Assembly: GCA_049523135.1 (NCBI GenBank)
Contig: JBEKNE010000001.1
Location: 542,809-606,808 of the forward strand
Direction of reading: 5' to 3'
DNA length: 64,000 nucleotides
From: Candidatus Microgenomates bacterium
GTDB lineage: Bacteria; Patescibacteriota; Microgenomatia; UBA8517
Positions within the stretch are counted from its first letter, which is position 1; each line of letters starts with the position of its first letter. The notes under the pieces are model-generated. The model did not search any database and was not told the DNA's origin. It saw nothing but the letters and a program-made list of their open reading frames with translations. Both the position numbers and the translations under genes were made by a program. This document shows, in pieces, positions 20,880 to 63,085 of the stretch.

Positions 20880-23800
20880 ATGGCACAAAATAAAGGCAGT
20901 GAATATACGGCAGAACAAATCCAGGTCCTGGAAGGGTTAGAACCGGTCAGAAAAAGACCTGGGATGTACATCGGTTCAACTGATGCCAGAGGACTTCATG
21001 AATGTTTAAGGGAAATAGTTGATAACTCCGTTGATGAAAGTTTTGCCGGAGTTTGCGACACAGTTTGGATATCTCTTAATAAAGACGGATCTGCAACTGT
21101 CAGGGATAATGGGAGGGGAATTCCAGTCGAAAAACAAAAAAAGACGGGTATTTCAGCATTGGAGTTGACTATGACTAAACTTCACGCCGGGGGAAAATTT
21201 GGCGGAGGAGCTTATAAAGTTTCAGGAGGACTTCACGGAGTGGGAGCATCCGTTGTTAATGCCCTTTCTTCATACTTTAGAGTCGTAGTTCTTAGAGACA
21301 ACAAAGCTTATTATCAGGAATACCACAAAGGCAAGCCCGTCAAAAAGGTTAGTGAAATCAATCAAGAACAACTTAATAAATGGTTTCCAGAAAGCTGGGG
21401 AATAAAAGTCAGTGCAAACCAAACCGGCACAATTACAACTTTTGTACCCGATAAAGAAATTTTCGGAGACCTGAAACTTGAAAACAACAAGGCAAAGAAT
21501 CTTCTTCGCGATAGGGCATACCTTGTTGCCGGACTGACTTTCCATTTTATCGATGAAAATGACGGTGATGAAGCAACTTTCTATTTTGAAGGCGGAATAA
21601 AATCCCTTGTTGCCCACAGTAATAGAGGCAAAAATGTTCTAACAGACGTCGTTTATATCTCAAAAGATAACGGAGTAATTTCCTGCGAAGCGGCACTTCA
21701 GTATTCGGATTCATTTAATGAAAATGTAAAAGGGTTTGTTAACGGAATTTATACAACTGACGGCGGAACTCATGTAACAGGATTTAGAATTGCCCTGACC
21801 CGTTCCATTACCGATTACTACAAAAGAATGCAAAACGGAAACGGGAAAGAGGAAACAACATTTACGGGAGATGATATGAAGGAAGGTTTAACCGCCATAG
21901 TCTATATAAAAATGCCTTCCGAAGCCTTGCAATTTGAAAGCCAGACAAAAGCTAAGCTAAATAATCCCGAAATTCAGGGATTTGTGGCAACTGTTGTTAA
22001 AGAAGGACTTGATACTTATTTTGAAGAACATCCGGCAGATGCCAGAAAAATTGTAGAAAAAGTAATGCTTTCTGCCCGTGCCAGACTAGCCGCACGCGCC
22101 GCAAAAGATGCAGTCCTCAGGAAAGGGGCTCTCGAAGGAGCGGCTCTTCCCGGAAAACTTGCCGATTGTCAGAGTTCCGATCCTGAAGTTTCGGAATTAT
22201 ATCTGGTGGAGGGTGACTCTGCCGGTGGTTGTTTTTCAGGAAATACTAAAATCGCCCTTGCAGACGGAAGAAATATAACTTTTAAAGAACTTGTAAAAGA
22301 AGATTGCCAAAATAAGAAAAATTATTGTTACAGCATTAGGAAGGACGGAAATATCGGCATTTCTTTAATAAAGAATCCGCGAATAACCAAAAAGAACACA
22401 TCAGTTATCAAAATAGTTCTCGATAACAACGAAGAAATCACTTGTACACCAAATCACTTATTTATGCTGAGGGACGGATCATATAAAAAGGCAGTGAATC
22501 TCAAAAGTACAGATTCCCTGATGCCTCTTAGACGACAATTTTCTAAAATTGGCAGAAGAATAACAATCGAAGGATATGAGATGGTTTTTGACACAAAGGA
22601 TATGAGATGGATTTTTACTCATATGCTCTCGGACAAATACAATTTGGAAAACAGTGTCTATGATGAACTAAAATGGCCATATAGACACCATATTGATTTT
22701 AACAAACTGAACAATAATCCGGACAATATAACAAGACTTACAAAAGAAGAACACCTGAAGCTCCACTCAAGTAAGATCAAACAAAATCTTTTAAGACCTG
22801 ATGTGTTGGAAAAACTTGTAAAACTTAGAAAAACTCCAGAATTTAGAGAAAAAATGAGAAAGGTTATGCTTATGCCAAAAACAAGAAAGCTCCTTAGTGA
22901 AAGAGCAAAAAAACAGTGGCTAGACGCAAATTATAAAAAATATATGGCTGATAAATTTTTAGAGTTTTATAACAATAATGAAGAGTACAGAGAAAAAAGT
23001 TTAGAAATTCTTAAAAAATCCCAGAAAAAATATTGGTCAAATATAGACAATCGACGTCTACAGTCTGAAAAGGTTAAAAACTTTTTTGAAACACATCCTG
23101 AACAAAAGAAGTTATTAAAACAACTGTCCGAAAAACAATGGCAAAATTCAGAGCTTCTTGAATGGAGAAGTAAAAAAACCAAAGAACAATGGACAGATGG
23201 GTTCCGAAAATCAAGAAAGATTTCTTATAACAAAATATATCTAATAAAAGCTCTACGAGTTTTAAATCAAATATACAAAGATTACGGTGAAGTAGATATT
23301 GATAAGTATCAGAAAATAAGACAGAAAACAAACGATAAGTCTTTAGTAAAATATCAAACAATTCTTTTGAGGTTTTTTGACGGAGATAGTAAAAAGTTGC
23401 AAACTGCAGTTACAAACTATAATCACAGAATCAAAAAGATTATCCGATTGGAAAAAAGAATTGATGTTTATGACCTTGAAGTAGAAAAAACGCATAATTT
23501 TGCCCTCGCTGGCGGAATATTTGTCCACAACAGTGCCAAGCAGGGAAGGGATAGAAGGCATCAGGCAATCCTTCCTTTAAGGGGAAAGATTTTAAATACC
23601 GAAAGAATACAGCTTGATGCTATTGTAAAATCCGAGGAAATTAAAAATTTAATTGTTGCTCTAGGCTGCGGAATCGGAGATTCTCTGAATTACGACAAAA
23701 TTCGGTACCACAGAATAATTATTATGACCGATGCCGATGTCGACGGTTCTCACATTAGTGCCCTGTTTCTAACTTTCTTCTATAGACATATGCCGGAAAT

Positions 23801-63085: not shown

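Follow-up and report, generated by a model that had tools for sequence, protein, structure and literature searches.

Inteins in gyrB, xer and dnaB and a stand-alone LAGLIDADG gene: probable selfish elements in a 64-kb stretch of a Woesebacteria-like genome

Why should a bacterium with a chromosome of well under one megabase carry long in-frame insertions in gyrB, xer and dnaB, together with a separate endonuclease gene, all within 64 kb, and do these elements belong to the host or to themselves? The question is raised by a stretch of 64,000 nucleotides of contig JBEKNE010000001.1 (hereafter 'the window'), which is the part of the source genome examined here. The source is a Woesebacteria-like bacterium of the Microgenomates, which belong to the candidate phyla radiation (CPR), with a tiny genome of about 0.78 Mb; its closest named relatives are Candidatus Woesebacteria. 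With a probability of roughly 0.85, the three insertions are canonical class-1 inteins and the fourth element is a homing-endonuclease gene associated with neither an intron nor an intein, all four being selfish elements of this genome.

The precursor open reading frames (ORFs) of gyrB, xer and dnaB are translated without interruption, and each contains a single full-length intein in frame. The junctions, marked here by a slash, are EGDSAGG/CFSGNTK...AGGIFVHN/SAKQGRDRR in GyrB, TPHVMRH/CLHPDTR...DGIVSHN/SFATDL in Xer, and AARPGVGK/CVAGDTLVID...ANDIVVHN/TSLAMNIA in DnaB. A catalytic motif is interrupted in each case, namely the Toprim motif EGDSAGG/S of GyrB, the HxxRH/SFAT motif of Xer beside its second catalytic Arg, and the Walker-A motif GxGK/T of DnaB. 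Cys1 is present in all three inteins and is kept in every Xer, GyrB and DnaB homologue in which the N-terminal junction is present. Block B reads TPNH in GyrB, TAVH in DnaB and SGTH in Xer (where Ser replaces Thr), its His being kept in at least 98% of the homologues, and the inteins end in FVHN/S (GyrB), VSHN/S (Xer) and VVHN/T (DnaB).

The profile matches agree with these assignments. Against a curated cut-off of 35.8 bits, the Pfam Intein_splicing scores are 68.9 (GyrB), 52.5 (Xer) and 88.7 bits (DnaB). The other Pfam matches are HATPase_c, DNA_gyraseB, Toprim and DNA_gyraseB_C in the gyrB precursor; Phage_integrase (two stretches), Phage_int_SAM_1 and LAGLIDADG_3 in the xer precursor; and DnaB, DnaB_C (split), LAGLIDADG_3 and HTH_3 in the dnaB precursor. 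NCBIfam gives gyrB models together with intein_Nterm and intein_Cterm, all above their cut-offs, for the first of these, and XerD, XerC and XerA models in two stretches for the second. The Hint fold is indicated for GyrB and DnaB by profile matches only, and for Xer by an AlphaFold model and a Foldseek search. The splicing domain of the DnaB intein matches the Ssp DnaB mini-intein 1MI8 with an E-value of 1.3e-28. The inteins are also lower in G+C content (31-36%) than the exteins (41-44%), the values for GyrB being 31.3% and 41.4%, respectively.

Relative to syntenic intein-less orthologues, the inserts are exact and in frame, for gyrB and xer at the nucleotide level (against loci L002 and L088, respectively). 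Moreover, identical precursor proteins are found on five to eight independent contigs of up to 780,708 bp in the JGI, ENA, NCBI and Logan assemblies, and therefore the inserts are not assembly chimeras. The first-pass annotation, which was made from the letters of the window alone, had proposed three inteins with intact splice residues and intact endonuclease motifs, and had named a chimera or the loss of splice residues as the finding that would overturn the proposal. The translations, the Pfam matches and the exact junctions bear out the inteins; the inserts are real, and all splice residues are kept. The endonuclease motifs (HNH in GyrB, LAGLIDADG in Xer and DnaB), read from the translations, likewise proved to be conserved in the homologues, as follows.

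In GyrB, the motif HH-x-D-F-N-K-x-NNNP-x-N...H-x3-H is kept in 95-96 of the 96 full-length homologues (residues HH 153-154, N 161-163 and 166, and H 175 and 179). Pfam HNH_3 scores 17.0 bits (E 0.0046), which is below its cut-off of 24.8, and for this reason the HNH assignment rests on the conserved motif. LAGLIDADG_3 is above the Pfam cut-off in both the Xer and the DnaB inteins. The conservation of the two Xer motifs given in Table 1 was measured over 38 homologues down to 44% identity. The DnaB motifs are LLGDGG and FACEGS, with the acidic D/E kept in 73 and 76, respectively, of 78 b-site homologues. Such conservation of endonuclease residues among homologues down to 40-50% identity indicates purifying selection on the endonuclease.

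Table 1. Coordinates in the window of the precursor genes, inteins, stand-alone endonuclease gene and associated elements (+, forward strand; -, reverse strand; aa, amino acids).
Feature	Position	Strand	Remarks
gyrB precursor gene, 1086 aa	20880..24140	+	one intein in Toprim EGDSAGG/S
GyrB intein, 434 aa (aa 451-884)	22230..23531	+	Cys1, TPNH, FVHN, Ser+1
HNH endonuclease core of GyrB intein	22686..22766	+	conserved motif; weak HNH_3 match
xer precursor gene (XerC/D-like tyrosine recombinase), 738 aa	38611..40827	-	intein between HxxRH and SFAT
Xer intein, 420 aa (aa 267-686)	38770..40029	-	Cys1, SGTH, VSHN, Ser+1
Xer LAGLIDADG motif 2, acidic E483	39373..39411	-	F475, G478, Y480, D481, A482 and G484 invariant; E483 kept in at least 90%
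Xer LAGLIDADG motif 1, acidic D387	39658..39693	-	G386 invariant; D387 and G388 kept in at least 90%
Conserved ORF-less intergenic element, interrupted by the endonuclease gene	41623..42786	-	nhmmer; ~800 nt in relatives
Dif-like inverted repeat TTCGTACAA-TGTAAC-TTTTGCGAC	41958..41981	-	5 nt beyond the stop codon of the endonuclease gene
Single-domain LAGLIDADG_1 homing-endonuclease gene, 165 aa	41987..42484	-	Pfam 2.3e-18
dnaB precursor gene, 934 aa	60281..63085	-	intein in P-loop GVGK/T
DnaB intein, site b, 493 aa (aa 218-710)	60956..62434	-	Cys1, TAVH, VVHN, Thr+1
HTH_3 insert in DnaB intein	61712..61864	-	Pfam E 1.9e-5, above cut-off

From what is known of intein families, each precursor would be translated whole, and the Hint domain would then excise itself by means of Cys1, the His of block B, the Asn at its end and Ser or Thr at position +1, joining the exteins and restoring the GyrB, Xer and DnaB enzymes. 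The released HNH or LAGLIDADG endonuclease would cut intein-less alleles, into which repair would copy the intein; decay to mini-inteins and eventual loss would be expected later, as in the Goddard-Burt homing cycle.

Among the three, the Xer intein seems to be undescribed, with regard to both its host protein and its insertion site. No literature was found on a natural intein in Xer or in any other tyrosine recombinase, and nothing relevant was found on inteins in the CPR or Patescibacteria. In the databases, JGI automatic product names read 'XerD/intein/homing endonuclease'. The GenBank annotation of the gene is a truncated 475-aa 'LAGLIDADG family homing endonuclease' (MGA3292147.1), by which the recombinase is hidden in the public record. 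The AlphaFold model of the precursor has a mean predicted local distance difference test (pLDDT) value of 80, with most of the intein part above 85. In a structure search it matched the TliVMA intein (E 3e-22, target TM-score 0.70) as well as PI-PfuI, PI-PkoII, PI-SceI, XerA and XerD.

At least 120 CPR protein clusters carry the Xer intein (44-78% identity; Woese-, Gottesman-, Roizman- and Nealsonbacteria). The list examined consists of the 120 best proteins by words shared with the intein-bearing query, and it thus favours intein-bearing proteins; in it, the junctions are HxxRH/C and [ST]HN/S[FY]A, always at one site, wherever they are present (a few homologues are truncated at one end), and the intein lengths are 405-430 aa. 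A scan of species-representative genomes with an extein-only profile gave 80 loci, all 80 of them intein-less, including Woesebacteria at 71-80% N-extein identity. The corresponding N-extein scan of metagenome contigs gave about 12 alleles with the Xer intein and about 55 without it. The intein is found in the five closest metagenomic xer genes (90-100% N-extein identity, one of them a partial match) and is missing from those that follow (83-89%). The order of yebC, the DUF5656 gene, xer and a convergent metK is syntenic, and many relatives read HVMRH/SFATDL at the site, for example L088. When 108 intein-bearing and 78 intein-less sequences are combined in one extein tree, parsimony counts 36 changes of the intein state. 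Discordant pairs occur in both directions, the intein identity being higher than that of the exteins in some (75% vs 59%) and lower in others (64% vs 95%).

For GyrB, junctions were parsable in 112 of the 120 best matches. The intein is full-length in 97, a mini-intein (140-187 aa) in ten and absent in five, always at one common position. The modal length of 434 aa is found exactly in 67 of the 107 inteins measured (97 full-length and ten mini). On the GyrB extein tree, the clade nearest to the window is intein-less, and three-state parsimony gives nine changes. The identities of extein and intein are weakly correlated (r = 0.32). For example, the closest extein (88%) bears an intein with 48% identity, and an extein with 84% identity bears an intein with 77%. 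This near-uncoupling is the pattern expected of horizontal homing and replacement. An intein-less gyrB orthologue stands in the same gene order as in the window in L002. A sister genome, GCA_029980365.1 (763-kb contig), shares with the window the order pilus genes, holB, gyrB, Cu-oxidase_4 and H+-PPase; the sister GyrB has 653 aa and reads GDSAGG/SAKQGRDRR.

Residues ~190-400 of the GyrB intein (22800-23400), after the HNH core, form a long helical region with recurring Trp motifs (KKQW, KKYW, EKQW and KEQW), the Trp being at least 98% conserved. This region matches no Pfam family and is possibly a repeated DNA-binding module.

DnaB inteins are found at three sites of the spliced reference, after residue 217 (P-loop, GVGK/TSLA), after residue 383 (RESG/SIEQD) and after residue 381 (LRE/SG). 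These correspond to sites b, a and c, respectively, of the survey of Novikova et al. 2016 (PMC4760082), where site b is the P-loop; the window has an intein at b only. The b-site inteins form one family with 40-71% identity to that of the window, cyanobacterial members included, and the a-site inteins are 27-36% identical to it. The relative P0243 (91% extein identity) also has site b occupied, by a shorter intein of 412 aa from which the HTH region is exactly deleted. Relatives at 86-90% extein identity have site a occupied and b empty (b is empty in P0274-P0281), and more distant relatives have b and a, b and c, or mini-inteins. In the syntenic locus of the sister genome GCA_029980365.1 (Lactamase_B_3, then dnaB), the P-loop is empty and a 424-aa intein is found at RESG/SIEQD.

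The HTH_3 domain of the DnaB intein in the window lies between the N-terminal splicing region and the LAGLIDADG core. The window's own site a is empty (60281-60955, LRDSG-G-IEQD), and the residue that is invariably the +1 Ser in occupied alleles is Gly there. In 35 homologues whose site a is likewise unoccupied, the residue was found to be Ser (16 cases), Ala (13), Gly (four) or Thr (two), so that about half are without the nucleophile needed by an incoming a-site intein.

Taken together, these comparisons show clear intein gain, loss and degeneration between related species, with lineages at different stages of the homing cycle; the stages would be invasion, fixation, endonuclease loss, deletion and re-invasion. 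A xer locus, L103, does not overlap the gyrB and dnaB loci of the sister genome and likely belongs to the same genome. The sister genome differs from the window at gyrB and dnaB and, if L103 is indeed part of it, is without the endonuclease gene and the Xer intein as well, which suggests recent turnover. The presence/absence comparison that had been suggested earlier thus gave a divided result, in that related lineages differ at all four elements and same-strain contigs are all alike. Every same-strain contig found has identical occupied alleles, these contigs having been retrieved by exact look-up of the occupied-allele proteins, by which an empty allele is not retrievable. Among the metagenomic relatives there is no intein-less xer allele at more than 91% N-extein identity. 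Therefore, the earlier statement that there is ongoing homing within the population goes beyond the evidence, polymorphism in this population not being demonstrated.

The description of the four elements as a notable parasite burden for a tiny genome holds in so far as three inteins and one endonuclease gene do occur within a small genome. It is a relative statement, because DnaB and GyrB rank with the bacterial proteins that most commonly host inteins (PMC4760082). No further intein or endonuclease gene was found in the window by six-frame hidden Markov model (HMM) and phmmer scans or by a Pfam search of 30 ORFs.

Several points weigh against the reading of these elements as inteins and homing genes under active turnover. 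The splicing and cleavage activities of the three inteins are deduced from sequence. The 120 Xer matches are skewed toward intein-bearing proteins by the ranking method, and the parsimony counts are rough because extein trees of about 300 columns are poorly resolved. The Xer intein and extein identities are correlated with r = 0.72, a value reached by none of 500 Mantel permutations. Much of the history of this intein is thus vertical, and part of its patchiness could be due to repeated loss. Finally, no intein-less allele of the same species was found.

The GyrB and DnaB inteins are of well-known kinds, and their presence here extends known families to the CPR. The HNH domain of the cyanobacterial (Ssp) GyrB intein is said to have been reported by Dalgaard and co-workers in 1997. 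A mini-intein sequence taken to be the engineered Synechocystis (Ssp) GyrB intein aligns to both splicing halves of the window's GyrB intein (E 1e-44 and 4e-17; 48-61% identity). By this alignment, and subject to that attribution, the window's intein belongs to the known GyrB family. Both the Ssp GyrB type and the window's intein end in FVHN/S and have an HNH-type endonuclease between the halves. Unlike the Ssp GyrB type, the CPR GyrB inteins have a uniform 434-aa form and long Trp-containing helical repeats after the HNH core.

The best solved match of the DnaB intein is the Ssp DnaB mini-intein, whose start and end motifs resemble those of the relatives' site-a inteins. No mycobacterial DnaB intein is among the listed Protein Data Bank (PDB) matches at E up to 0.01. 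With the DnaB-b inteins of the survey (PMC4760082), the window's intein shares the GxGK/T insertion, LAGLIDADG, Cys1, HN and Thr+1, and its same-site homologues at 40-71% identity include sequences named Dolichospermum. It differs from them in its extra HTH_3 domain and in its CPR host, the distribution list of the survey being without the CPR (PMC4760082).

The Xer intein model superposes on TliVMA (7QSS), PI-PfuI (1DQ3), PI-PkoII (2CW7) and PI-SceI with E-values of 3e-22 to 1e-11, and PI-PfuI shares LAGLIDADG_3 sequence motifs with it (E 5e-7). The sequence identity between the archaeal LAGLIDADG inteins and the Xer intein is 12-19%, and the Xer host is a tyrosine recombinase.

The fourth element is the stand-alone LAGLIDADG_1 gene. 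Its 165-aa protein covers positions 2-102 of the 102 positions of the Pfam profile, and it matches each half of the monomeric meganucleases of the I-OnuI and I-SmaMI families with E-values down to 1e-20. Introns in the 23S rRNA genes of the CPR abound in single-domain LAGLIDADG_1 enzymes of about 180 aa, among which I-ShaI is active in the form of a homodimer (PMC11270868). The 165-aa protein is of the same Pfam family and size class as the I-ShaI type, a homodimer is implied by its single motif, and its host is likewise of the CPR. Unlike I-ShaI, its gene lies outside any rRNA gene and without a detectable intron, within an intergenic element beside xer.

This gene is absent from all of the 160 related, collinear xer loci. 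The 90%-identity cluster of its protein has one member among about 15 billion proteins, and no phage relatives were found in the viral contig collection. A promoter-like TGGATA-17-TATAAT is present just upstream of the ORF. The gene was also considered as the ORF of a group I intron, and this was rejected, as there is no intron family in the window or in the relatives and no host gene in the flanks. The Rfam gathering scan of the window gave a tRNA-Leu and a SAM riboswitch only, and E-value scans (E up to 10) of 41400-43000 and of the endonuclease-less locus L094 gave nothing credible. It is best explained as an endonuclease of the homodimer type common in CPR rRNA introns that has landed ectopically beside xer and is private to the strain. 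Its existence had been recognised in the first-pass annotation, with a distance of 1.2 kb from the Xer intein that needs correction: the gene lies 1.16 kb from the start of xer and about 1.96 kb from the intein. It was also called free-standing. This is apt in that the ORF is intact, lies outside any intron or intein and is present or absent between collinear genomes, and inapt in that it is embedded in a conserved non-coding element.

That element, which hosts the endonuclease gene, is the most unusual item of the window. In relatives it is found downstream or upstream of no conserved ORF of its own spacer (e.g., at L094:2341-3143, L096:8367-9165 and L087:7081-7900): the spacer, which runs from the DUF5656 gene to its neighbour and measures 776-1056 nt, contains invariant blocks and no conserved ORF. 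Endonuclease-less relatives, from about 50 Microgenomates loci, match the profile of the element from end to end. In the window, the nhmmer match is split exactly around the ORF, with profile positions 17-375 at 42786-42410 and 427-815 at 41980-41623, so that about 50 positions of the profile have given way to the endonuclease gene, in a variable segment flanked by invariant blocks. Among the invariant blocks are GGGGAGGAGGG, two copies of GTTTTCACGAA, the palindrome CCTATAATTATAGG, TGTGGATAA and a number of CCGAA repeats. The element is without a match in Rfam. A single large structured RNA is unsupported, RNAalifold giving for 29 sequences 24 pairs and -10 kcal/mol over 1138 columns with little covariation. 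Two small hairpins at the 3' side of the element do show compensatory changes, one of them being followed by a run of T.

The dif-like inverted repeat of the element is the sole such site in the window (both strands scored; 2 matches vs 0.09 expected by chance). Where 10-20 kb per genome was examined, the motif (G)TCGYACAA-N6-TTTTRCGAC occurs 92 times in several CPR phyla, nearly always once per locus, with invariant arms and a variable 6-nt centre, and usually 0.5-2 kb upstream of xer on the same strand. The Y and R positions of the arms vary independently, which points to DNA half-sites rather than an RNA helix. The repeat matches what we take to be the E. coli dif sequence at 17 of 28 positions. 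In the XerS/difSL system, as presented in the available part of its description (PMC2731167), a single xer is linked to dif; similarly, the CPR repeat, with arms of 9-11 nt and a 6-nt spacer, is near xer. Unlike in the XerS/difSL reading taken from that part, there is no switch of replication skew at the CPR repeat, which is a candidate Xer site or equally an operator. Across 35 loci, a downward step of the bulk GC skew is seen at the motif, where the third-codon-position skew keeps its sign; the latter has no sign change in the window either. The reading of the element as dif at the replication terminus was rejected for lack of this flip and is kept at a low probability. The replication origin was likewise considered, in view of a perfect TGTGGATAA box and an AT-rich stretch, but the upstream genes point inward and the sign of the skew is wrong.

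For the element, three roles are conceivable, as a dif-like site, as an operator or within an RNA. In a wider reading, which is attractive but rather unlikely, the Xer intein would be a CPR-wide family residing in the active site of a resolvase of chromosome dimers that may be the only one of the lineage, and the element, with its invariant 9-6-9 palindrome, would be the cognate CPR dif with accessory sequences, or a new large RNA. Two unrelated selfish elements would then each have colonised one half of a recombinase-and-site module, and Xer activity would depend on splicing. Between the element and xer there is a 246-aa ORF at 40880-41620 (-), without a Pfam match. Only some relatives have this ORF (27-55% identity), and for this reason the distance from the element to xer ranges from about 0.05 to 1.4 kb.

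Other explanations of the inteins have to be weighed against selfish homing. They might be kept by the host as useful post-translational switches, conditional splicing gating gyrase, the helicase and Xer under stress. All three do lie in catalytic motifs, their lengths are uniform (434 aa in 67 of 107 in GyrB and 405-430 aa in Xer), and the divergence of the Xer intein in part follows that of its host (r = 0.72). Splicing of the mycobacterial DnaB P-loop inteins is redox-sensitive. A functional importance of replisome inteins is argued for in PMC4760082. The explanation is nevertheless quite improbable, because empty gyrB, xer and dnaB-b sites are found at 83-90% extein identity, mini-inteins indicate that the endonuclease is dispensable to the host, and the conserved endonuclease active sites are needed for mobility and not for regulation. 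Alternatively, the endonuclease domains might be dead relics, the inteins persisting because precise deletion is rare and imprecise deletion is lethal in an essential gene. Such a late stage is expected in the homing cycle, and mini-inteins do occur in GyrB and DnaB relatives. Relics are unlikely all the same, given that the window's inteins have kept the acidic residues of both LAGLIDADG motifs and the HNH motif in full, that these are conserved down to 40-50% identity, and that the histories of the GyrB intein and its host are largely uncoupled (r = 0.32). As the source is a metagenome-assembled genome, it may also be asked whether one or more inserts are artefacts of assembly or binning; the chance of this is minute, considering the identical precursors on five to eight contigs from separate samples and assemblers, the exact reading frames and the same junctions in more than 100 homologues.

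With regard to the stand-alone gene, the alternative is that a group I-like intron or another structured RNA encodes it, the ~800-nt element being that RNA. LAGLIDADG_1 enzymes are typically encoded by introns, those of CPR rRNA genes included, the ORF takes the place of a variable segment between invariant blocks of an otherwise ORF-less element, and the two 3' hairpins with compensatory changes, including the one with the T-run, would suit an RNA. It is, however, improbable that this alternative is correct, since no Rfam family, group I introns included, is matched at E up to 10 in the window or in an endonuclease-less relative, the consensus fold is poor (24 pairs and -10 kcal/mol over 1138 columns), and there is no host gene to supply exons. 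In addition, the short repeated motifs and the variation of the palindrome (C..A combinations) resemble protein-binding DNA.

For intein engineering, and for work on the target specificity of LAGLIDADG enzymes, the Xer intein is a useful source, its endonuclease motifs being conserved and its natural variants numbering at least 120. The three host genes provide natural snapshots of the homing cycle across lineages that are about 87% identical in protein, with full-length, mini and empty states and a switch of site in DnaB. The clade is thereby suited to quantifying the turnover of inteins in reduced genomes with a possible dependence on host cells. If confirmed, the dif-like element could identify the chromosome-dimer resolution site of the Microgenomates.

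Some further features of the window were observed. The gyrA gene is uninterrupted at its catalytic AAMRYTE motif. An intein was considered in GyrA, where Pfam DNA_topoisoIV matches in two stretches, and rejected: the gap is a low-complexity insert of about 55 aa (window 32180-32350, GyrA residues ~203-260) without splice motifs or an HMM match. The SAM riboswitch (S box) lies at 37229-37326 (+), directly upstream of metK (37301-38386), and scores 46.2 bits against a gathering threshold of 44.4. The segment from dnaB to a pseudouridine synthase gene (54700-60280) differs from that of the sister genome (L169:8659-12600), with genes for a PIN-domain and a Fic/DOC protein, tRNA-Leu(CAA) and two ORFs of about 500 aa without annotation on the window side, and CYTH, zf-dskA_traR and other genes on the sister side; it looks like a variable island beside a tRNA.

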